Below are positions 23,460-51,603 of a stretch of DNA of 64,000 bases, piece by piece (within the stretch, counting starts at the first letter, position 1; every line of letters begins with the position of its first letter). The DNA comes from Candidatus Aenigmatarchaeota archaeon (GTDB taxonomy: Archaea > Aenigmatarchaeota > Aenigmatarchaeia > CG10238-14 > SpSt-28): assembly GCA_032249395.1 (NCBI GenBank), contig JAVVFY010000003.1:28329-92328 (forward strand), written 5' to 3'. Below the pieces are notes generated by a model. The model did not search any database. It was not told where the DNA came from and was given only the letters and a program-made list of their open reading frames with translations. The translations under genes were made by a program, and so were the position numbers.

Positions 23460-23532
23460 GGGCGGGTAGCTTAGTGGCTGGAGCGCTCGGCTGATAACCG
23501 AGAGGTCGTGGGTTCGAATCCCACCCCGCCCA
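23460..23532 (+). tRNA. tRNA-Ile (anticodon GAT)
   Basis: It folds by hand into a cloverleaf. The acceptor is GGGCGGG/CCCGCCC, the anticodon arm is CTCGG-CTGATAA-CCGAG, and the T arm is GTGGG-TTCGAAT-CCCAC. Length 73 nt, no encoded CCA. Confidence 0.9.
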
Positions 23533-26666: not shown

Positions 26667-26739
26667 GCGCCAGTCGTCTAGCCTGGTAGGACACGAGCTT
26701 CCCAAGCTCGGAGCCCGGGTTCAAATCCCGGCTGGCGCA
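26667..26739 (+). tRNA. tRNA-Gly (anticodon CCC)
   Basis: The acceptor is GCGCCAG/CTGGCGC, the anticodon arm is CGAGC-TTCCCAA-GCTCG, and the T arm is CCGGG-TTCAAAT-CCCGG. Length 73 nt. Confidence 0.9.
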
Positions 26740-29548: not shown

Positions 29549-29622
29549 TGGGCCTGGCGGGATTCGAACCCGCGACCAACCGGTTAAGAGCCGGCTGCTC
29601 TACCTGGCTGAGCTACAGGCCC
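29549..29622 (-). tRNA. tRNA-Lys (anticodon CTT)
   Basis: The reverse complement reads GGGCCTG TA GCTCAGCCAGGTAGAGC A GCCGG CTCTTAA CCGGT TGGTC GCGGGTTCGAATCCCGC CAGGCCC A. Length 74 nt. Confidence 0.9.
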
Positions 29623-38912: not shown

Positions 38913-38986
38913 GCCCTGGTAGCTCAGCATGGTAGAGCACCTCACTGGTAATGAGGGGGTCGCGGGTTCGAATCCCGCCCAGGGCT
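38913..38986 (+). tRNA. tRNA-Thr (anticodon GGT)
   Basis: The sequence reads GCCCTGG TA GCTCAGCATGGTAGAGC A CCTCA CTGGTAA TGAGG GGGTC GCGGGTTCGAATCCCGC CCAGGGC T. Length 74 nt. Confidence 0.9.
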
Positions 38987-39085: not shown

Positions 39086-39331
39086 GTGAAGAAAGAAATA
39101 GATGTTTCTAAGCATGAATTAGTACCAAAACACGAAATAGTTAGCGAAAAGGAAAAAGAAGAACTAATAAAGAAGTATGGAAGTATAAAGAATTTTCCTA
39201 GAATTTTGTCGACAGATCCTCAAGTAAAATTATTAAATGCAAAACCAGGAGATGTTATAAAAATAAGAAGGTATAATGATGTAACGGGAGAATCAATATA
39301 CTATAGAGTAGTTGTAGAGGTGAAAGAATAA
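39086..39331 (+). CDS. rpoH: RNA polymerase subunit H (Rpo5)
   Basis: The sequence HELVPKHEIVSEKEKEELIKKYGSIKNFPRILSTDPQVKLLNAKPGDVIKIRR fits RpoH. It has a GTG start and is the first gene of the conserved cluster. Confidence 0.9.
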   Translation: MKKEIDVSKHELVPKHEIVSEKEKEELIKKYGSIKNFPRILSTDPQVKLLNAKPGDVIKIRRYNDVTGESIYYRVVVEVKE

Positions 39332-40821
39332 TGGAAAATGTTTTCACAATTCTAATGAAGTCCTATCTTAGAGAAAAAGGACTAGTAAATTTTCAAATAG
39401 AGTCCTTTAATGAGTTCGTCGAAAAAAGGCTACCAAAATTAATAAAGAGTATTGGAAAAATAAAGCCAGAACTTCCTGAAATTGGGGAGTTAGAAATAAA
39501 GCTTGGTAAATTTGAGCTTGGGGAGCCAAGAGTTAAAGAAGCTGATGGCTCTATAAGAAAGATATATCCAATGGAAGCGAGAATAAGGAATTTGACATAT
39601 TCAGCACCAATGTACGTTGAAATGACCCAAGTATTAAATGGAATAGAAAGTAAACCAACAATGGTTGAAATAGGCGATCTACCAATAATGGTGAAATCTA
39701 AATTTTGCCCTTTATCGAGAATGAGTAGAAAAGAGCTTATAGAAATAGGAGAAGATCCTGATGATCCAGGAGGATATTTTATCATAAATGGTACGGAAAG
39801 AATTCTAATGCTTGTAGAAGAAATAGCAACTGACAGAATTATAGTAGAAAAAACTAAAGATTCTTCTGTTCCACAAATAGCAAGAATACATTCTGAAAGG
39901 GAAGGATTTGTACAAAAACACTTAATAGAAAGAAAAAGAACTGGAGAAATTTATATAACATTTGCTAACATTCGTAGGATTCCTATAGTAATAATACTAA
40001 AGGCTTTAGGATTAGAAAAGGACAAAGAAATCTTAGAAGCCATATCTTTAGATGAAAGAATTCAAGAGTCATTTTTAATTAACATTTTAGAATTTCCGAT
40101 AAAAAATGGAGAAGAGGCTATAGATGAATTGGGTAAATACCTTAGGATTCCTCAAAAATCTATGAGAAAAAAACAAGCAATAAGAATGATAGATAAGTAT
40201 TTGCTACCTCATATTGGACAGGAGCCGGAAAATAGACTAGCCAAAGCTATGTTTATAGCCAAAGCTATAGAAAAAATTTTAAAACTTCACTTGGGCGAAA
40301 TAGAAGAAGATGATGTAGATCACTATGCAAATAAGAGAATTAAAATGGCTGGAGACTTGTTGGAATTGCTCTTAAGGTCTATACTTTTGGGAAAATGGGG
40401 ATTAATAGTTAGAATGAACTACAATTATCAAAAACTTGTAAAAAGAGGAAAATTGCCTCCCTTGCAAGCTGTAGTAGAAAACGCAATATTAACTAACCAA
40501 ATAGTTTCAGCTATGGCCGTTGGAAGTTGGATAGGTGGAAGAACTGGGGTAACTCAGAGGCTTGAAAGAAGTAGTTGGAACAAAACTATAACTCATATGA
40601 GAAATATTGTCTCACCACTTTCTTCTACCCAAGAACATTTCGAAGCAAGAGAACTTCACCCTACTCATTTTGGTAAACTATGCGTAACTCAAACGCCAGA
40701 AGGAGCAAATATTGGTTTGAGAAAGTATCTTGCTATTAGTGCGACGATAACTCCTAAGATAGACAAAAAAGATATAACTCCAATACTAGAGTTACTAGAT
40801 TCTGTAAAGGTGAAAAAATGA
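39331..40821 (+). CDS. rpoB2: RNA polymerase subunit B'' (N-terminal part of split Rpo2)
   Basis: The motifs QIESFNEFV, GYFIINGTERIL and HFGKLCVTQTPEGANIGL are present. An ATGA overlap links it to the next ORF. Confidence 0.9.
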   Translation: MENVFTILMKSYLREKGLVNFQIESFNEFVEKRLPKLIKSIGKIKPELPEIGELEIKLGKFELGEPRVKEADGSIRKIYPMEARIRNLTYSAPMYVEMTQVLNGIESKPTMVEIGDLPIMVKSKFCPLSRMSRKELIEIGEDPDDPGGYFIINGTERILMLVEEIATDRIIVEKTKDSSVPQIARIHSEREGFVQKHLIERKRTGEIYITFANIRRIPIVIILKALGLEKDKEILEAISLDERIQESFLINILEFPIKNGEEAIDELGKYLRIPQKSMRKKQAIRMIDKYLLPHIGQEPENRLAKAMFIAKAIEKILKLHLGEIEEDDVDHYANKRIKMAGDLLELLLRSILLGKWGLIVRMNYNYQKLVKRGKLPPLQAVVENAILTNQIVSAMAVGSWIGGRTGVTQRLERSSWNKTITHMRNIVSPLSSTQEHFEARELHPTHFGKLCVTQTPEGANIGLRKYLAISATITPKIDKKDITPILELLDSVKVKK

Positions 40822-43800
40822 CAAGGGCTAGCGTTTTTCTAGATGGTGAATATTTGGGTGAAATTGAAAACCCTAAAGAATTCGTAGAAAGCGTTAGAAA
40901 AATGAGAAGGGAGGGAAAAATACCACCATTTGTTAATATTGCATACCATGCTCACTTAAATGAAGTAAGAATTTTAACTTCGCCAGGAAGAGTAGTTAGA
41001 CCTCTGATAGTTGTAGAAAATGGAGTTCCAAAATTAACAAAAGATATATTAGAAAAAGTGAGAAGGGGTGAATTGAGTTTTTCTGATCTAGTGAAAAATG
41101 GAATTATTGAGTATTTGGATGCGGAAGAGGAGGAAAATGCTTATATTGCAATAAGACCTGAAGAAGTAACCAAAGAACACACACATTTAGAAATAGATCC
41201 TGCAGTAATTCTTGGTTTTTCCGCCCAATTTGTTCCTTATCCAGAATTTAATAGGGGAGATAGAGTTAATTATGGAGCTAAAATGGGGGATCAATCTATA
41301 GGTATATTTGCGGCAAACTTTCTTAATAGAGTTGACAGCAAATCAAGCGTATTAGTTTACCCGCAAAAGCCGCTAGTACAGACATACATACATAAAATTC
41401 TAGACTATACAGAAAACTATCCCCATGGTGTTAATGTTGTAATAGCAGTAGCCACTTATGAAGGATACAATATTGAAGATGCTATCGTTTTAAATAAGTC
41501 TTCGGTAGAAAGAGGTATGTTTTGGAGCTATATGTATAGAACTTATGAGACGGAAGAAAAAAGATATCTTGGTGGTCAAGAAGATATAATTGGAATACCA
41601 CAACCAGGAATAAGAGGTTATGGTGGTGAGGAGGAATACAAACACCTTCCAGAAGATGGGATAGTAAATCCAGAAACCGAAGTACATTCAGATCAAGTTC
41701 TTATAGGAAAAACTTCTCCTCTAAGATTCTTAGGCAAAGCCGATATATTTTTAGCAGGAATGGAAAACTTAAGAGAAACGTCTGTAAGAGTAAGGCATGG
41801 TGATAAAGGAATAGTTGATAGAGTTTATTTAACTCAAACAACCGATGGTACAAAATTAGTTAAAGTTGTTGTTAGAGACTTGAAAAAACCAGAAATAGGC
41901 GATAAATTTGCTTCTAGACATGGACAAAAAGGAGTAATAGGGTTAGTGGTTCCTCATGAAGACATGCCATTTACAGAAAGTGGTATTGTTCCTGATATTA
42001 TTTTCAATCCTCATGGACTGCCATCTAGAATGACAGTTGGTCAACTTCTAGAAATTTTAGCAGGAAAAGTAGCGGCAATATCTGGAAGATACATAGATGC
42101 CCCAGCTTTTAATCCTACCAATGAAGAAGAGTTGAAAAACGTTCTGAAGAAATTAGGATTTGAAGAAAGTGGGAAAGAGATAATGTATGATGGCAAAACG
42201 GGAAGAAAATTCGAAGCTAAGATTTTCATAGGCTGTTCTTTCTATATGAAGTTGGATCACCTAGTTTCAAATAAACTACAATCAAGAGCAAGAGGTCCTG
42301 TAACTTTATTAACGAAACAACCAACAGAAGGTAGAAGCAAAGAAGGTGGTTTAAGATTGGGTGAAATGGAAAAGGATTGTTTATTGGCTCATGGTGCTGT
42401 GCTAACTTTAAAAGAAAGATTCGATTCAGATAGAATTATTCTACCTGTTTGTAAGAAATGTGGAATGGTAGCTGTTCACGAAAAACCAAAAAACAGATAT
42501 TTCTGTCCTGTATGCAAAGATGATGCAGAAATAACAAATGTTGAGATGACTCACGCTTTCAAATTACTATTGGATGAACTAAAGAGCTTGCTAATATATC
42601 CTAAGTTGGTTATTAACGATGAAGGAAAGATAAGCAAAATAGAATTCAGTATTCTAGATCCTGATACTATAAGAAAGATGGCGTTCGCTGATATAACTAA
42701 AATTGATATCTACGATGAAGAAGGATACCCTATAGAAGGAGGTGTTATGGATCCTAGATTAGGAACAGTAGAACCTGGAATAAGATGTAGGGTTTGTGGA
42801 GGAAATGTTGGAGAGTGTCTAGGTCATTTTGGTAAAGTAGAACTTGTAAAACCTGTTATTCATCCTCACTATGTCAAGTTTTTGCATTTTGTATTAAAAA
42901 TAACATGTAGAAAATGCGGAAAACTTTTGATAGATGAGGAGACAAAAAAGAAAGGTAAGATATCGTGGAAAGAAATAGAGAAACTTGCGTTGAAAAAATG
43001 CCCATATTGTAATACTCAACAAAAAGAAATTAAATTAATTAAGCCATACATATTTATAGAAGGTAACAAAGTATTAAATCAGGAGGAGATTAGAGAGAGG
43101 CTAGAGAAAATACCAAATGAGGACCTGAAGATACTTAATCTTAAAATAAGACCTGAATGGTTGATTCTAACAGTACTTCCAATACCTCCAGTAACTATAA
43201 GACCATCCATAACATTAGAAACTGGAGAAAGAAGCGAAGATGACTTAACCCATAAGCTGGTAGAGATAGTAAGAATTAACGACAGGCTTAGAGAAAATTT
43301 GGAGTTGGGAGCACCACAATTCTTATTGAACGATTTATGGGAGCTTCTACAATATCATGTAGCAACTTATTTTGATAATGAATTGTCTGGAGTTCCGCCA
43401 GCGAGACATAGATCTGGTAGGGTTTTAAAAACTCTAAGCCAAAGATTGAAAACGAAAGAAGGAAGATTTAGAGGAAACCTACTTGGAAAGAGAGTTAACT
43501 TCTGTGCAAGAACAGTTATTTCCCCCGACCCTAAAATTAAAATAAATGAAGTTGGTGTTCCACAAATAATAGCTAAAGATATAACAATTCCTATAAGAGT
43601 AGATGAGAGAAATATAGAAGAGTGTAGAAAACTTGTTTTGAACGGTCCTAATTGTTGGCCTGGTGCAAACTACGTTATTAGACCTGATGGAAAGAGAAAA
43701 AGAATCTTAGAAACAAACAAAGAGGAAATAGCAAAAGAACTTGATGTTGGTTATATAGTTGAAAGACATTTAATGGACGGAGATATTGTTATTTTTAACA

Positions 43801-45107
43801 GACAGCCAAGCCTGCATAGAATGAGCATGATGGCTCATAGAGTAAGAGTAATGCCATACCTAACTTTTAGATTAAATGTAGCTGTCTGTCCGCCATACAA
43901 TGCCGACTTTGATGGAGATGAGATGAACTTACATGTTCCACAAACAGAAGAAGCCAGAAGTGAAATAGATATCCTTGCTTCGGTGGAAAAAAACATAAGA
44001 AGCCCGAGATACTCTGCTCCCATAATAGGACCAATAAGGGATGGGATAACTGGTCTATACTTGTTAACTAAAGACGGTAACAAGCTTAGCAGAAGAGATG
44101 CAATTAGATTGATAAGAAGCGTAGATACTGATGTAGAAATTCCGGAAAAGGATGAATTCACCGGTAAGGAAGTCTTTAGTATTCTACTACCTAAAGATTT
44201 CTCTATCGAATACAAAGGAAAAACAGGAATTGTAAAAATAGAAAATGGTAAACTTATAAAAGGTGAATTAGAAAAAAACGGAATAAGCGCGGACGGAGGA
44301 AAAATAATAGACAAAATAGAAAAATATTATGGAAGAGTGTTCGCTAGCGAATTCATTTATAAAATTCAGCTTTTAGGGATTAACTATCTGGACATGAAAG
44401 GATTTTCTCTTGGGATTACGGATTTGAGTATAGAAAAAAGAGTAAAAGAGGAGATACAGAAGATTATAGAACAAACAGAAAGCGATATTAATAAAATGAT
44501 TGAAAAATTCAACAAAGGAGAGCTAATTCCTATGATAGGGAGAACTACCGAGGAAACTTTAGAAAATATGATAAAAGAAAGAATAGCTATGTGTTTGAAT
44601 GAAAGCATGAGTGTATTAGAAAGAGGAATTAAAGAATCTCCAGCTTTAGATATGGTAAAATGCGGTGCTAGAGGAAGTTTAGTAAATCTCTTACAAATAG
44701 TTGGGTTAATTGGTCAGGAAATGATAATGGGCGAAAGAATAGAAAAAGGATATTATAAGAGGACTTTTCCTCATTTTAAGATGAATGATATAAGTCCGGC
44801 ATCCAAAGGTTTTGTTGCGCATGCTTTTAAAGATGGTTTAAACGTATTTGAATTCTACTTCGATAATATGAACTCCAGAGAAAGTCTTATGGATAAAAGT
44901 TTAAAAACAAGGCACTCTGGTTATATGGAGAGAAGATTAGTCGGCGCTCTTCAAGATTTAAAAATCGCATACGACGGAACAATAAGAGACGCCGCAAATA
45001 GAATAATTCAATTCGTTCCATTCGAGGATGGTCTAGACCCATCGAAAATTACTAGAGAAGGAATAAATGTTAGAGAAATAGCAAGGAGGATCTTCAATGC
45101 TTCCTAA
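40818..45107 (+). CDS. rpoB1/rpoA1: In-frame fusion of RNA polymerase subunit B' (Rpo2 C-terminal part, about residues 1-601) and subunit A' (Rpo1 N-terminal part, about residues 602-1429)
   Basis: B' motifs are [34 protein letters not shown] and the Zn ribbon CKKCG...CPVCK, followed by [23 protein letters not shown]. The frame continues without a stop into A' motifs: [37 protein letters not shown], the catalytic [12 protein letters not shown] and [13 protein letters not shown]. Confidence 0.85.
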
Positions 45108-46233
45108 AAAGATTTTAGAAGAGGTGGAAAAGGTCTCTAAAGAACTAAAACTTAATGAAGAAGATAAAAATAAATTGATAAAAGAAGTGGAAAAAGAATA
45201 CCTTAATATGATGGCCGAACCTGGTGAAGCTGTAGGTATTTTGGCTGCTCAAAGTATTTCTGAACCAGCTACTCAACTTACCATGAGAACTTATCACCTT
45301 GCTGGAGCTGCAGGAGTTAAGATTACATTTGGTTTACCAAGACTGATAGAGATATTCGATGCAAAAAGAAACATAGAAACCCCGATGATGACGATATATT
45401 TGAAAAAAGAATTTAACACTAAGGAAGAGGCGGAAAAAGTGGCATTTAAAATAGTTGAGAAGAGAGTTATAGACCTATCTAGTTATATATCAATGGATAT
45501 AGGAGAAACTTCCATTATTGTAGAACCTTCTGACAAAAGAAAAGCGGAAAAGATAGAAACGGCAATAAAAGAATATTTAGGTAAGAAAGCAGAAGTAAGC
45601 ACTAAAGAAGGCAAAATAATTGTTCGAGTCAAAGAGAAGGAAGTAAGTCTTTCAGATTTACAAAAAATAAAAGAAGATATCTGCAATATCGTTGTAGAGG
45701 GTATTCCTGGAGTAACAGCAGTAATAGTTAAAAAAGAAGGAGACGAATGGATTTTGCAAACTGTTGGATCAAATCTAAAAGAAGTATTGAAACTCCCCGA
45801 AGTAAATGAACATAAAACGATATCTAACGACATTTTTGAGGTTTATGAAATTTTTGGAATTGAAGCAGCTAGAAATGTCATAATAAAAGAAGCTTACAAG
45901 ACTATGCAAGAACAAGGATTAGATACAGATATAAGATATTTGCTGCTTTTGGCAGATGTGATGATATGGAGTGGAGAAATAAGCTCTATAGGAAGATATG
46001 GTGTGGCTGGTGCTAAGTTTTCGGTACTTTCAAGAGCTGCGTTTGAAGAAACAATAAAACATCTAATTAGAGCATCGATAAGAAATGAAGTTGATGAATT
46101 TAAAGGTTTGTTCGAAAATGTTATGATAGGTCAACCGGCACCAGTAGGTACTGGTATGTTTGAGCTATTAGTTAGAGGGGGAGAAGAAAATGAAAGTGGA
46201 GGAGATGGTGAAAAAAGCATTAAAGGAGAATAG
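45097..46233 (+). CDS. rpoA2: RNA polymerase subunit A'' (Rpo1 C-terminal part)
   Basis: The motif [31 protein letters not shown] is present. It overlaps the preceding ORF by 11 nt. Confidence 0.9.
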
Positions 46234-46444
46234 AATAATCTTCGGTTATAGAGAATCATTAAAATACATAAGGAATAACACTCCAGAAGTCGTCATAATT
46301 GCTAAAAATGCGCCAGAGAAAATAAGAAAAGTTATACTAAATAGTAATGTTAAGTTTATCATTTTTGAAGGGAGCAGCAAAGAGTTGGGCACTATTTGTG
46401 GCAGGCCACATCCTATAACGACAATAGTAATAAGGGGAAATTGA
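46190..46444 (+). CDS. rpl30e: Ribosomal protein L30e
   Basis: The sequence [38 protein letters not shown]...[23 protein letters not shown] fits L30e. The true start may be the internal ATG at 46205. Confidence 0.8.
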
Positions 46445-46445
46445 A

Positions 46446-46859
46446 ATGAAGATAACTTTTGATACAGAAACAATTAAAACCATTAATCTATTTGAAACTA
46501 TTAACAAAGCTAGTGTTAAAGATTGCATAATTATGGATGATAGAATATACTTCTTAATAGATGAGGGAGAATCAAAAAAAATAAAAGAAAATGGCAATTT
46601 AGTAAGAAACCTGGAAAAGATGCTAAAAAAGAAAATAATAATTTTTGAATATTCCAAAGACTTATCGACATTTCTAAAAAACTCAATAAAGGGTGTTCGT
46701 GAAATAAAAATAAGAAATGAAAAAGAAGAGAAAATAGTGGAAATAAGTGTTGATAACTATCTAAAAAGTATAGTAATAGGTAAGGATGGTAAAAACATAA
46801 AAGCTTTAAGACAAATTTTGAAAAGAAACTATAACATAGATAATTTGGTGATAAGGTAA
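46446..46859 (+). CDS. nusA: Archaeal NusA-like KH-domain protein
   Basis: The KH motif [16 protein letters not shown] is present, and the gene sits between L30e and S12 as expected. Confidence 0.8.
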
Positions 46860-47281
46860 TGCCTGGAGAATTTGCTGGTAGAAAATTAAAGCAAAGAAGA
46901 AAAAAGTTCAGATGGTCTAGCGAAGCATATAAAAGAAGAGTTTTGCAGCTATGGAAAAAAGATCCGCTAGAGGGAGCTCCCATGGCTAGAGGAATAGTTA
47001 TAGAAAAGAGAGCTGTAGAGCAAAGAAAACCGGCTTCCGGTTTAACGAAATGTGTTAGGGTCCAATTGATTAAAAACAACATACAAGTTACTGCCCATGT
47101 TCCAGGAGTTGGAGCAATTGATAAGATTAGTGAACACGATGAAGTATTAATAGAAAAAGTTGGTGGAGGCCAAGGAGGATCAAAAGGTAGTATGGTAGGT
47201 ATAAAATATAGAGTTATTGCTGTTAATGGAGTCGCTCTAAGTGAAATCCTCAAAGGTAAAAAACAGAAACCTGCTAGGTAG
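46859..47281 (+). CDS. rps12: Ribosomal protein uS12
   Basis: It begins [20 protein letters not shown] and contains [14 protein letters not shown] and VLIEKVGG. Confidence 0.9.
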
Positions 47282-47286
47282 ATTTT

Positions 47287-47889
47287 ATGAGTGAGGAGAT
47301 AAAACTGTTTGGCAAATGGTCTTTCGACGTTAAAATTTTAGATAAAGGACTTGAAAGATATATTAATTTAACTCCAAAAATAGTTCCAAAATCGTGTGGT
47401 AGATATGCTAAACAACAATTTCATAAATCAAAAATGAATATTGTTGAAAGACTTATTACCCATTTAATGGTTCCAGGCCATAAAGGTAAAAAACATGTTT
47501 TAACTTCTGGAAGAGTTGTTGGAAGATGGCAAACAACCTATAAAATTGTGGAAAAAGCGTTTGATAAAATATACGAAATTACAAAGAAAAATCCTTTAGA
47601 GATTTTTGTTAGAGCTATAGAAAACGCTGCTATTAGAGAAGAAATTGCTGCTTATCAAGTTGGTGGAATAATAGTTAGAAAAGCTGTAGTTACCTCTCCT
47701 CAAAGAAGAGTTGATTTAGCTCTAAGGCATATAGCGCAAGCGGCATATAGGAAGGCTTTTGGAAAAAAAGCAAATATGGTTGATGCGTTAGTTGAAGAAA
47801 TTATTGGCGCTTATGAAAATAATCCAACAAAAAGTGAAGCTATAAGAGAAAAAGAGAGAATAGAAAAAGAAGCAGAGGGAGCAAGATAG
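47287..47889 (+). CDS. rps7: Ribosomal protein uS7
   Basis: The motifs KLFGKW, NIVERLITHLM and AIENAAIREE are present and the gene order is conserved. Confidence 0.9.
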   Translation: MSEEIKLFGKWSFDVKILDKGLERYINLTPKIVPKSCGRYAKQQFHKSKMNIVERLITHLMVPGHKGKKHVLTSGRVVGRWQTTYKIVEKAFDKIYEITKKNPLEIFVRAIENAAIREEIAAYQVGGIIVRKAVVTSPQRRVDLALRHIAQAAYRKAFGKKANMVDALVEEIIGAYENNPTKSEAIREKERIEKEAEGAR

Positions 47890-47922: not shown

Positions 47923-50900
47923 ATGACTATGAAAAAAGAGATGATTGAAAGAATCAAAGAATGTATGAAGCATCCGGAGAGAATAAGAAACGTTGCTACT
48001 AGTTCTCACGTTCACCATGGAAAATGTGTAAGTGGCGATACATTGATATTCCTAGAAGATAAAACCCTAACTGCAAAAGAACTTTTTGAGATAGCAAAAA
48101 AAGACGGCGTACTTTTAAAGAAGGATTTAGAGGAAATTTATAAACTTGCAGAACCTATAAGTGTACTAACCTATAAGGACGGAGTAATTTCAAGAGGATT
48201 AATAACTCATGCATGGAAGATTAAGAATTTTGATAAATTGATAGAAGTTGAAACAAACGATGGGAGGAGAATTAAAGTTACGCCAGAACATAAATTTTTG
48301 ATTTTTAAGAACGGAAAAATATATGAAAAAGAGGCGAGAGATTTAAACAGGGGAGAGATTTTAGTTTTACCAAATGTTATTCCTTCAAAATCTATAGACC
48401 TAAAAGAGATTAAAACTTACTTTCTAAAGAAATTATCCGAAGATTATTCTTTTCTGGCTTACGTTAGCGATAATTTAAAGAAAAAACTCCACAAGATTGT
48501 CATAGAGTATGGAAGAATGAAAATTCACAAAGAAATAAAAAGCAAAATAAAGCCTCTTTCCTTTTATCATGGTGTGTGGGGAGGCAGATACAGAATTTCC
48601 GACTTAATAAAGTTGGCAGAGAAATTCCAAGTTGATTTATCAGAAGTTTACGATAACATCGAATTCATTTCCTATAGAAAAGGAATAAAAAGATACGGTT
48701 CGAGAACCTCTATCAAATTAAAACTTCCTAAAAATGAAAAAGAATTTATTGAGTTCTTCTATTTACTTGGTCTTTTGTTTGGAGACGGAAGTGTAAATTT
48801 AACGTTTGATAACAATAATCCAAAACTTTTAGAAAAGGTTGTTAAAATCTGTAGAGAAATTCTTGGAACATCTCCAGTACTTAAAAAGTATAAAAATAAG
48901 TGTCCACGAGTTTATTTGAATGGCGGATTTACATTAAAGTTTTTCCTCAATAAAGTGTTTGATTATCCGTTGAAGTCAAAAGCCAAAAATCTCAGAATTC
49001 CTTGTATTTTATTCAATTTGCCACTTCATTTCATTTCAAGTTTCATAAGAGGATACTTTGATACAGATGGTTCTGTGCATCAAACCGTCTACCTTTCTTC
49101 GGCAAGTAGAGAAGTATTAGAAGGCATAAAACTTTTGCTATTAAGGTTTGGATGTCACTCTTATATAAGAGAGAAAATTGCAAGTATTAAAGATAGAAAA
49201 TATAGAGAATTTGTATTACACATTTCTGGAAGGATTGACCTCGAAAGATTTATTCATTTTATAGGTTTTGGAGTAGATTACAAACAAAAAAAGCTTGAAA
49301 GGCTCCACTTGAATGCTTCTTTTAGCAAAGTTTTTGATACAATTAAAATAGAGCTACCATTCATAAAGATGGTTGAAAATCAAATAGCTCTTTTACCTGT
49401 GGTTAATGTTAGAGAAGTTTATGGTGAGGATTTTGTTTATGATTTTACAGTTGAAGAAACACATAACTTCCTTGCAAATGGCTTCTTCATTCATAATACA
49501 ACTCTAACTGACAACCTAATGGCTGGGGCCGGAATGCTAGCAGAAGAGATGGCTGGTAAAGTGATGTATACCTGGTTTGATCCGGAGGAAAGAAAGAGAC
49601 AATTGACTGTTTATGGAGCAAACGTTAGCATGGTACACGAATATGAAGGTCAAGACTATTTGATAAATTTGCTAGATACTCCTGGTCACGTAGATTTTGG
49701 TGGCGACGTTACAAAAGCTATGAGAGCTGCAGATGGAACAATAGTTTTAGTAGATGCAGTAGAAGGAGTAATGCCACAAACCGAAACTGTATTTAGACAG
49801 GCTTTAAGAGAGTATGTTAAACCAGTATTATTTATTAATAAAACTGACAGACTGATAAAGGAATTAAAGTTAACTCCAGAACAAATGATGGAAAGATTTG
49901 AAAGAATAATAAAGGATGTTAATGGATTGATTGACAAATATTGTCCACCAGAATTCAAAGGAAAATGGTATGTTAGTGTAAAAGATGGTAGCGTAGCTAT
50001 TGGTAGTGCTTTCAAAAGATGGGCAATTTCTATTCCTTATTTACAAAAAAGCGGAGTAACTTTGAAAGAAGTTATTCAACTAACATTAGAAGGAAAAGAA
50101 GAAGAATTAGCTAAAAAGGCTCCTTTACATCAAGTTGTTTTGGATATGATTATTAGACATCTTCCTTCTCCTGTAGAAGCACAAAAATATAGAATTCCAA
50201 AAATTTGGAAAGGAGATATCGAAAGCGAAATTGGAAAACAGATGTTAAATTGTGATTCGAATGGAAGATTAGCCGCAATAGTAACTAAAATGATCCCAGA
50301 CGAGCATGTAGGTTTTGTTGCTACAGCAAGAATATTTTCTGGTAAAATATTCAAAGGAAAAGAAATATATCTGGTAAACTCCAAAAAGAAAGAAAAAGTT
50401 CAACAGGTAGCAGTTTTCAAAGGAATAAACAGAGTTCCTGTGGATGAAGTTACCGCTGGGAACGTAGTAGCTATTGTAGGAATACCCGAAGCTTTTACTG
50501 GAGAAACGATTTGTGATGTAGATTATACGATAGAACCATTCGCAGAAATAAAACACATTTTCGAACCAGTTGTTACAAAATCCATAGAGCCTAAAAATCC
50601 TATGGATTTACCAAAACTTGTTGATGCATTGAGAAAAATTGGAAAAGAAGATCCCACGCTAATCGTTAAGATTAATCAGGAAACTGGAGAATATCTTGTT
50701 TCTGGCTTAGGTGAATTACACCTAGAAATTAAAGTAGAACACAAGTTGAAAGATATGGGAATCGATGTTGAGTTGTCTCCACCAATAGTAGTTTATAGAG
50801 AAACAATTCTTAAACCTTCCCCAATGGTAGAAGGAAAATCCCCAAATAAACACAACAAACTCTATTTCATTGTTGAACCATTAGAAGATGGTGTTTATGA

Positions 50901-51603
50901 AGCCATGAGAGCTGGAGAGATACCAAGCACGATTGAAGTAAAGAAGAAGAATTTGGAACTATTTCAAAAATTAGAAAAAGCTGGTATGAAAGGGGAAGAT
51001 GCGAGAAACGTATTGCTTATTTACAATAAAAATGTTTTCATCGATCAAACAAAAGGAGTACAGTTCTTGTTAGAGGCAATTGAAATGATTAAAGAGGCGT
51101 TTAAAGAAGTTATGGATGATGGTCCATTAGCAAGAGAACCTTGCATGAAGCTTAAAGTAAAATTGGTAGATGCTGAATTACATGAAGATCCTGTACACAG
51201 AGGCCCTGGTCAGATAATGCCGGCTGTAAGGTACGCTATAAGACAAGCTATGTTGTTAGCAGGTGCCTTGCTATATGAACCTAAACAAATCTTGAGAATA
51301 GATATTCCGAATGAGAATATGGGAATTGTAGTGAGGGAAATAGAAAATAGAAGAGGTAGCATTCTAGAAATGAAAGAAGAAGGAGAAACAATGACAATAA
51401 TGGCAAAGATACCCGTTTCCGAGTTGTTTGGATTTGATGCAAAACTTAAATCTTTAACTAGCGGTAGGGGATTTTATAGTCTTGTTGACATAGTTTTTGA
51501 AAAGTTACCAGACGAACTAAGAGAACAGACAATAAAATCAATAAGAAAAAGGAAAGGTCTGCCTGAAGAGATCCCTAAAGCTGAAGCTGAGCCGGTCTCT
51601 TAG
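47923..51603 (+). CDS. fusA: Elongation factor 2 (aEF-2) interrupted by an intein. The exteins total 735 aa.
   Basis: The N-extein ends HVHHGK. The C-extein begins TTLTDNLMAGAG and continues with DTPGHVDFGGDV, NKTDR and the rest of the EF-2 body. Confidence 0.9.
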   Translation: MTMKKEMIERIKECMKHPERIRNVATSSHVHHGKCVSGDTLIFLEDKTLTAKELFEIAKKDGVLLKKDLEEIYKLAEPISVLTYKDGVISRGLITHAWKIKNFDKLIEVETNDGRRIKVTPEHKFLIFKNGKIYEKEARDLNRGEILVLPNVIPSKSIDLKEIKTYFLKKLSEDYSFLAYVSDNLKKKLHKIVIEYGRMKIHKEIKSKIKPLSFYHGVWGGRYRISDLIKLAEKFQVDLSEVYDNIEFISYRKGIKRYGSRTSIKLKLPKNEKEFIEFFYLLGLLFGDGSVNLTFDNNNPKLLEKVVKICREILGTSPVLKKYKNKCPRVYLNGGFTLKFFLNKVFDYPLKSKAKNLRIPCILFNLPLHFISSFIRGYFDTDGSVHQTVYLSSASREVLEGIKLLLLRFGCHSYIREKIASIKDRKYREFVLHISGRIDLERFIHFIGFGVDYKQKKLERLHLNASFSKVFDTIKIELPFIKMVENQIALLPVVNVREVYGEDFVYDFTVEETHNFLANGFFIHNTTLTDNLMAGAGMLAEEMAGKVMYTWFDPEERKRQLTVYGANVSMVHEYEGQDYLINLLDTPGHVDFGGDVTKAMRAADGTIVLVDAVEGVMPQTETVFRQALREYVKPVLFINKTDRLIKELKLTPEQMMERFERIIKDVNGLIDKYCPPEFKGKWYVSVKDGSVAIGSAFKRWAISIPYLQKSGVTLKEVIQLTLEGKEEELAKKAPLHQVVLDMIIRHLPSPVEAQKYRIPKIWKGDIESEIGKQMLNCDSNGRLAAIVTKMIPDEHVGFVATARIFSGKIFKGKEIYLVNSKKKEKVQQVAVFKGINRVPVDEVTAGNVVAIVGIPEAFTGETICDVDYTIEPFAEIKHIFEPVVTKSIEPKNPMDLPKLVDALRKIGKEDPTLIVKINQETGEYLVSGLGELHLEIKVEHKLKDMGIDVELSPPIVVYRETILKPSPMVEGKSPNKHNKLYFIVEPLEDGVYEAMRAGEIPSTIEVKKKNLELFQKLEKAGMKGEDARNVLLIYNKNVFIDQTKGVQFLLEAIEMIKEAFKEVMDDGPLAREPCMKLKVKLVDAELHEDPVHRGPGQIMPAVRYAIRQAMLLAGALLYEPKQILRIDIPNENMGIVVREIENRRGSILEMKEEGETMTIMAKIPVSELFGFDAKLKSLTSGRGFYSLVDIVFEKLPDELREQTIKSIRKRKGLPEEIPKAEAEPVS
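48025..49497 (+). mobile_element. Intein of 491 aa with a LAGLIDADG homing-endonuclease domain, inserted in the EF-2 P-loop
   Basis: Cys1 is in block A (CVSGDTLIFL) and block B is VTPEHKF. The endonuclease motifs are LLGLLFGDGSV and FIRGYFDTDGSV. Blocks F and G read VYDFTVEETHNFLANGFFIHN, followed by Thr at +1. The size is 1473 nt, or 491 codons. Confidence 0.9.

Follow-up and report, generated by a model that had tools for sequence, protein, structure and literature searches.

The 64,000-nucleotide (nt) stretch of Candidatus Aenigmatarchaeota archaeon DNA analyzed here (the window) encodes the large RNA polymerase (RNAP) subunits, and in it the genes for subunits B' (Rpo2C) and A' (Rpo1N) are joined into one. 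We consider it highly probable that this is a genuine, inherited in-frame gene fusion of the Aenigmatarchaeota (DPANN), with the origin and working proposed below. The fused gene, rpoB'-rpoA', is a single open reading frame (ORF) on the forward strand, which begins with ATG and encodes 1429 amino acids (aa) plus a stop. Translation of 40818..45107 is uninterrupted across the B'-A' join, where neither a stop nor a start codon occurs; the junction codons at 42618-42626, GAT GAA GGA, specify D601, E602 and G603. Pfam assigns Rpb2 domains 4, 5, 6 and 7 to aa 6-598 and then Rpb1 domains 1, 2, 3, 4 and 5 (the N-terminal part of domain 5) to aa 604-1405. The second-largest subunit's C-terminus thus leads straight into the N-terminus of the largest, with Rpb2_7 ending at aa 598 and Rpb1_1 starting at aa 604. 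Likewise, the same protein passes the NCBIfam archaeal rpoB model TIGR03670 (rpoB_arch; 883 bits against a cut-off of 811, aa 6-601) and both A' equivalog models (NF006336, 1121 > 819; TIGR02390, 1090 > 1042). The in-frame RpoB'-RpoA' fusion of 1,429 aa that the initial annotation of this DNA had described, without a stop or start codon where the two parts meet, is therefore confirmed.

The motifs of both moieties are intact. B' carries its active-site and hybrid-binding motifs, GYNIEDA (aa 216) and a second one at aa 361, and a C-terminal zinc ribbon, CKKCG...CPVC (aa 545); A' carries an N-terminal zinc motif (aa 657), GKRVNFCAR (aa 890) and, at aa 1028, the catalytic loop NADFDGD. B' has no free C-terminus in this protein, as the chain runs on into A'. 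We scanned the position of the former A' start for ATG, GTG or TTG and for GGAGG-like motifs in 77 loci and in the window. At the window junction the scan found nothing resembling a Shine-Dalgarno motif, and the residues between aa 577 and aa 621 include no Met; the linker codons read GAT GAA GGA AAG, with aa 621 the first Met after them. Because the junction has neither a Met nor a ribosome-binding site, A' can be made in the window only as part of the fusion, and the fused gene is the only source of both B' and A'.

The open frame is conserved among the homologues of the window protein. In a homologue search over ~5.8 billion proteins the best 120 matches were examined, ranging from 100% down to 53% identity, and all 120 are fused. 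Most of them fall into two length classes (91 proteins of 1,400-1,499 aa and 27 of 1,900-1,949 aa), with two outliers of 1,237 and 1,608 aa. The junction was located in 119 of the 120, and the frame is open in every one of these 119. Those homologues that are named are almost all labelled "Candidatus Aenigmatarchaeota/Aenigmarchaeota archaeon", and the name of the protein in the databases is just "subunit A'". The 90%-identity cluster of the window protein holds 13 full-length members of 1,429 aa, drawn from independent JGI, ENA, Logan and NCBI assemblies, all with the junction LVINDEGKI.

Alignment of the 119 junction segments reveals conserved flanks, AFKLxLDELK..IYPK on the B' side and I-E-F-x-x-L-S-P-E-x-I-K-K-M on the A' side. 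The linker between them is variable in sequence, and the distance from YPK to I-x-F is 10-13 residues. The window protein fits this consensus with its frame open, and it clusters with loci L001 and L003 inside the fused clade. Kept flanks around a variable linker are what one would expect if the open frame is real and maintained by selection and the linker is tolerant. That the frame is open by chance is not credible: the window DNA has ~34% G+C, and the frame is open in all the junctions located.

We examined how the two subunits meet at the join. In solved archaeal structures, the subunit B chains of P. furiosus and T. kodakarensis align to within 3 residues of their C-terminus, and the alignment of solved archaeal A' (Rpo1N) chains starts at residue 3-8, so almost nothing was lost or added at the join. 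An AlphaFold2 model of aa 535-910, built on an alignment of 36 fused homologues, has a mean predicted local distance difference test score (pLDDT) of 76 and a predicted TM score of 0.78, with pLDDT 90-91 in the blocks at the junction. In the model, aa 593-599 (IYPKLVI) form one strand and aa 605-612 (ISKIEFSI) another, with aa 600-604 (NDEGK) turning between them. The best PDB match to the model by Foldseek is 3QQC_A (TM 0.79/0.78, root-mean-square deviation 3.1 A, 366 columns), and 3QQC chain A is also the best PDB sequence match across the junction. The linker NDEGK is predicted to be the turn of a beta-hairpin that leads from the last B' strand to the first A' strand, two neighbours inside the clamp. 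The claim of the initial annotation that the fusion links the two halves of the catalytic cleft holds in part: B' and A' are covalently joined, but the model and the 3QQC match place both strands in one mobile module, the clamp, and the jaws are not tied together.

The structure 3QQC is itself an engineered join. This recombinant P. furiosus clamp (rClamp) combines B 1053-1115, A' 3-318 and A'' 334-371 through short Gly/Ala/Ser linkers; it folds and binds Spt4/5 (Martinez-Rucobo et al. 2011, PMC3094117). As in the window protein, the C-terminus of B is joined to the N-terminus of A', and the alignment is continuous across the junction (aligned segment PKLNLSEGGKVIGSIEF). In contrast to the natural protein, which consists of complete B' and A' and must work in a whole polymerase, the construct is an artificial clamp fragment made for crystallography and includes a piece of A''. 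Tolerance of a B-A' link is already shown by this construct.

Given such a join, the single 1,429-aa chain would fold into normal B' and A' modules with NDEGK as a hairpin turn. Clamp movement and catalysis should be unaffected, as the joined strands adjoin within the clamp in the model and in the engineered precedent. The fusion would fix B' and A' at 1:1 and make assembly of the clamp intramolecular. In M. maripaludis, RNAP is built up from an Rpo3/11-Rpo2'2'' subcomplex, and this assembly is stoichiometry-sensitive (PMC13556214); on that route, the fusion would merge two assembly steps. The conserved open frame, the intact motifs, the structure model and the engineered precedent lend indirect support to a working enzyme, and we infer that the fused protein serves as both subunits in an otherwise normal archaeal polymerase.

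To follow the fusion across species, one genome per GTDB species was scanned with the junction alignment and the best 80 loci were retained. Both flanking motifs were located in 78 of them, of which 48 are fused and 30 unfused. Judged by at least 48 of the best 80 GTDB loci and by all 120 best protein clusters, the fusion is widespread in the phylum Aenigmatarchaeota. Four architectures occur among the Aenigmatarchaeota-type sequences (a slash marks a gene boundary). Two are fused: B''/B'-A' (~1,430 aa), the window type, which forms a large clade, and B-A' (~1,915 aa), in which an unsplit B is fused to A' in ORFs of ~1,915-1,940 aa (L047, L050, L052, L059, L066 with its 5' end cut, L067 and L073). 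Two are unfused: B''/B'/A' (L012, L028, L031, L025, L034, L075, L017, L046, L051, L074 and L077) and B/A' (L038, L055, L056 and L061). For the window, the arrangement given in the initial annotation, B''/B'-A'/A'', both split and fused, is correct, since B'' and A'' are separate ORFs.

Loci that carry the labels of other lineages (Nanoarchaeota/Woesearchaeota-type, Archaeoglobales, Methanocellales, Hydrothermarchaeota and Hodarchaeaceae) are unfused. The exceptions are three fused loci in bins of other phyla: L007 (Woesearchaeota), L030 (Heimdallarchaeota YT1_048) and L002 ('uncultured bacterium'). L007 and L030 are placed inside the Aenigmatarchaeota-type fused clade; L002 is truncated and absent from the tree, and its junction is 87% identical to that of the window. 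All three are probably mislabelled or mis-binned. The same is probable for P0014, an Aenigmatarchaeota-type fused gene in a metagenome-assembled genome (MAG) labelled as another phylum.

The split of B varies as well. In part of the Aenigmatarchaeota the boundary between B'' and B' is also closed, giving one B-A' chain (examples are P0066, P0084 and P0086), and B is likewise unsplit in the unfused sister genomes with B/A' named above. Parsimony gives 3-4 changes of the B split state within the phylum (tree including outgroups). Upstream of the junction, the open B' frame of L017 extends over only 293 aa and that of L031 over only 129 aa, suggesting an interruption (a frameshift, an intein boundary or an error). 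The A' ORFs of L054 (1,337 aa) and L064 (1,094 aa) are longer than usual, pointing to an intein or an unsplit A.

The unfused relatives suggest how the fusion came about. In these genomes the B' stop abuts the A' ATG, or precedes it by one to five codons, and the stop shares the frame of the ATG in all but L075, which has its ATG shifted by 1 nt. The junction of L012 reads ...GAA GTT TAA ATG AAA GTA GAT AGA ATA GAG TTT, that of L056 ...GGT GAA TGA ATG CAG and that of L051 ...GAA TAA ATG ATA. Spacing of the flanking motifs in the closest unfused relatives is the same as in fused genes, 270-273 nt, and at the peptide level unfused L012 (...EEV*MKVDRIEF, asterisk for stop) may be set against fused P0021 (...EEEVMKVDRIEF). 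Within their last B' codons, unfused members have a strong Shine-Dalgarno motif (GGAGG or GAGGT). A vestigial ATG persists at the former A' start of five fused loci (L010, L021, L026, L027 and L029), only one of which has a GGAG motif nearby.

Because the B' stop and the A' start abut, nearly always in frame, one stop-codon substitution is enough to fuse the genes. A single substitution from stop to sense codon would create the fusion, with the old stop and start becoming residues of the linker; the reverse change would re-split the genes where an internal Met and a ribosome-binding site survive. This mechanism of origin is supported by the comparison, and from it we infer the direction of the change. 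The junction of L034 (JAWCME010000006.1) has an apparent tandem duplication of the segment with the Shine-Dalgarno motif and the stop, GAAAGAGGAGTAATATTTTTGAAGGAGGAGTAATATG, and its motif spacing is 291 nt, against 270-273 nt in relatives.

We placed the fused and unfused states on a neighbour-joining tree of 70 sequences (the window and 69 loci), computed from a 1,215-column concatenate of B' and A' with 100 bootstraps. Unfused L012, L028 and L034 are nested in the main fused clade (100/100 bootstraps). Two further groupings have the same 100/100 support: fused L041/L057 with unfused L046/L051 as their sister group, and the B-A' clade with unfused L056 as its sister. L067, which also has B-A', stands apart from that clade. 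Fitch parsimony of the fused or unfused state requires 7 changes for the observed tree; in each of the bootstrap replicates the figure is 6-7. Unfused junctions are common to several MAGs, KEV*KM occurring in all of L028, L031 and L025 and KEE* in both L034 and L075, indicating that most unfused states are real and not errors. Repeated switching of the fusion state is well supported by the tree, and the exact count and direction of the switches are approximate. As the state has switched repeatedly, the selective difference between fused and unfused genes appears small, which suggests that the fusion is near-neutral or mildly advantageous, with no new function apparent.

Errors are possible in MAG assemblies, and a miscalled stop base or an indel of 1-2 nt might have turned two genes into one ORF in an organism that truly has both. 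We hold such a sequencing or assembly artefact to be virtually inconceivable here. The initial annotation had pointed to a stop codon in related genomes as the sign of two separate genes, and stops are indeed present at some junctions (L012, L028/L031/L025 and L034/L075, with L075 offset by 1 nt from the fused frame); they are, however, real alternative states, most of them common to several MAGs, and not an error in the window. An artefact does not account for an identical junction in 13 full-length, near-identical proteins from independent assemblies, nor for 120 of 120 fused best homologues with 119 of 119 located junctions open, and it would need more than one wrong base, since the window junction lacks both a stop and an ATG. 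It is also very unlikely that the gene is fused while separate B' and A' proteins are made from it, by internal initiation or by proteolysis of the linker. In favour of this, five fused relatives retain the vestigial ATG, one also with GGAG nearby, and variability in the region is greatest in the linker. But the window has neither a Met between aa 577 and aa 621 nor a Shine-Dalgarno-like motif at the junction, and internal initiation would still leave a full-length product with B' attached to A'. A five-residue linker predicted as a tight, ordered hairpin (pLDDT ~90) is a poor protease site, and PMC7483510 describes the bacterial beta-beta' fusions as fused genes.

More plausible than these, although still doubtful, is that the fusion is adaptive and kept by selection: in ultra-small DPANN cells with few chaperones and assembly factors, a tether might secure stoichiometry and clamp assembly, or alter clamp dynamics or the binding of Spt4/5 or TFE. 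In keeping with this, the fused state persists over a deep clade, down to 53% identity, a second fusion (B'' with B') was added in one subclade to give B-A' of ~1,915 aa, and B, A' and A'' share one 2,214-aa ORF on an unrelated archaeal contig. Archaeal RNAP assembly is, moreover, sensitive to stoichiometry, and the enzyme co-elutes with chaperonin (PMC13556214). On the other side, unfused genomes nested in the fused clade and 6-7 changes of state speak against strong selection either way, and the junction lies within one rigid module, of which the engineered equivalent behaves like the native clamp. In H. pylori, separation of the beta-beta' fusion is reportedly tolerated. A bolder form of the idea, in which fusion of large-subunit genes is an adaptive trend of ultra-small archaea towards a single-chain catalytic core and not neutral drift, seems to us somewhat less likely still. 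If it is true, the Aenigmatarchaeota show the intermediates, from B''/B'/A' to B''/B'-A' to B-A', with the 2,214-aa ORF of contig L081 as the end point; L081 would then encode a cellular polymerase of the multisubunit type with its whole catalytic core in one chain. Tethering would offset lost assembly helpers, and a reversible switch from stop to sense codon would let lineages move between states. We return to an inherited and near-neutral fusion as the preferred reading, against which several points have to be counted: the fused chain is predicted from gene sequences; MAG labels are unreliable, which leaves the taxonomic range based on sequence clustering rather than curated taxonomy; near-neutrality is read from the switching pattern; and the tree is a neighbour-joining tree, not a maximum-likelihood tree with site-heterogeneous models, which for fast-evolving DPANN makes the number and direction of the switches approximate.

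It is documented that bacterial beta and beta' (rpoB-rpoC) are fused in Helicobacteraceae and Wolbachia (Zakharova et al. 1999; Lane & Darst 2010, as cited in PMC7483510). The archaeal B'-A' fusion is a counterpart of this known bacterial phenomenon. The junction is homologous, the fusion is a trait of a lineage, and relatives have separate genes that abut or overlap. The analogy drawn in the initial annotation is upheld by the position of the join between Rpb2_7 and Rpb1_1, as an analogy and not as membership of a family: the archaeal fusion belongs to another domain of life and originated independently. Dedicated NCBIfam models exist for the bacterial fusions (NF007172 PRK09603 and NF011417 PRK14844) and none for the archaeal one, and the window protein scores far below the bacterial cut-offs (346 against 5372 and 343 against 4632, respectively), so it is not a member. 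Furthermore, unlike the bacterial fusions, the window gene joins only the C-terminal half of a split B, A'' remains separate, and the state switches repeatedly within the phylum. Severinov et al. reportedly obtained an active polymerase in 1997 from tethered E. coli beta-beta', where the large subunits are likewise covalently linked, although that link is artificial and bacterial.

Among archaea, the large subunits are known as B or B''/B' and as A or A'/A'', with a secondary A'-A'' fusion in Pacearchaeota, and such events were called rare (Da Cunha et al. 2017, PMC5484517). There too, gene boundaries change in evolution, especially in fast-evolving DPANN, but the pieces belong to the same subunit, whereas the window joins two different subunits, B and A. 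We found no published description of an archaeal B-A' fusion in the full-text literature, a coverage that leaves most subscription journals outside. The fusion is unmentioned in a 2024 genome-wide screen of archaeal fusions and fissions (PMC11237513), in a 2026 review on how archaeal RNAP evolved, Aenigmarchaeota included (PMC13257274), in a 2026 preprint on the Aenigmarchaea B'' subunit, in a DPANN comparative genomics paper (PMC8407392) and in Da Cunha et al. 2017. The statement in the initial annotation that the fusion is not an established feature in archaea thus stands for the literature, but not for the databases, where the fusion is common in public MAG annotations, hidden as "subunit A'".

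That name creates an annotation gap, as it makes B' look missing in surveys of gene content, and marker-gene pipelines that expect separate matches for rpoB and rpoA1 may mishandle the fused protein. Eukaryotic Pol II has its closest model in the archaeal enzyme, and the four gene architectures among close relatives form a natural series, a testbed for the effect of B-A' tethering on assembly, stoichiometry and clamp dynamics. The fused protein is also a natural single-chain source of clamp for structural biology. As a simple, homoplastic rare-genomic-change character, the fusion can help to sort Aenigmatarchaeota lineages and to flag mis-binned contigs.

Coordinates of the polymerase operon, the parts of the fused gene and neighbouring features in the window.
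Feature	Coordinates	Strand	Details
tRNA gene	23460-23532		
tRNA gene	26667-26739		
tRNA gene	29549-29622		
tRNA gene at the head of the polymerase operon	38913-38986	+	~100 nt upstream of rpoH
rpoH (Rpo5), first gene of the polymerase operon	39086..39331	+	81 aa; Pfam RNA_pol_Rpb5_C, E 4.9e-25
rpoB'' (Rpo2N), separate N-terminal half of subunit B	39331..40821	+	496 aa; Rpb2_1/2/3
Fused rpoB'-rpoA' (Rpo2C-Rpo1N)	40818..45107	+	1429 aa
B' moiety	40818..42614	+	aa 1-599; final clamp strand IYPKLVI
Junction linker N600-D-E-G-K604	42615..42629	+	site of B' stop and A' start in relatives
A' moiety	42630..45104	+	aa 605-1429; by alignment to solved archaeal A' (Rpo1N) chains
rpoA'' (Rpo1C), separate gene	45097..46233	+	378 aa; C-terminal part of Rpb1_5
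L30e, NusA-like KH protein, S12, S7	46190..47889	+	Pfam Ribosomal_L7Ae, KH domains, Ribosom_S12_S23, Ribosomal_S7
aEF-2	47923-51603	+	1,226 aa

The operon has the order canonical for archaea: rpoH, B'', B'-A', A'', L30e, NusA-KH, S12, S7 and EF-2. Its polymerase genes overlap one another. The rpoH stop overlaps the B'' ATG (TAATG), rpoB'' and the fused gene share ATGA at 40818-40821 (stop of the former, start of the latter), and rpoA'' overlaps the fused gene by 11 nt, with a GGAGG upstream of the rpoA'' ATG inside the 3' end of the fused gene. The aEF-2 gene contains an intein near the N-terminus of its product, in the GTPase domain at ~aa 44-525, with a LAGLIDADG homing-endonuclease domain (Pfam Intein_splicing and LAGLIDADG_3).

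In a library of representatives at 50% identity, all Aenigmatarchaeota fusions collapse to one representative. Among the 150 best matches listed from that library, the nearest other A' proteins begin at their own residue 2-17, and the only further proteins that span the junction are P0159 and P0234. P0159 is encoded at 4732-11376 of L081 (Logan SRR24908257, an 18.7-kb contig), the single 2,214-aa ORF with B, A' and A'' fused; its domains are Rpb2 1, 3, 6 and 7, then Rpb1 1, 2 and 3 and a complete domain 5. The context of L081 is archaeal, with S19e upstream and S12, S7 and EF-2 downstream. The junction region of P0159 is only 35% identical to that of the window, and a word-based homologue search found no close relatives of it. 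In P0234 (1,665 aa; JGI, ENA and Logan; 10 contigs, the longest of 79 kb), a full Rpb2 precedes Rpb1 domain 1 and part of domain 2. The name given to it by one source is 'RPB2', and the candidate origins are a eukaryote, a giant virus or an archaeon.

Four further proteins, P0121, P0123, P0126 and P0129, are 59-66% identical to the A' part of the window protein over its first ~300 residues. P0121, P0123 and P0126 (61-66% over these residues) are unsplit A, with A' and A'' in one chain. P0123 has an intein with a LAGLIDADG domain, and P0129 has an intein in Rpb1 domain 2.

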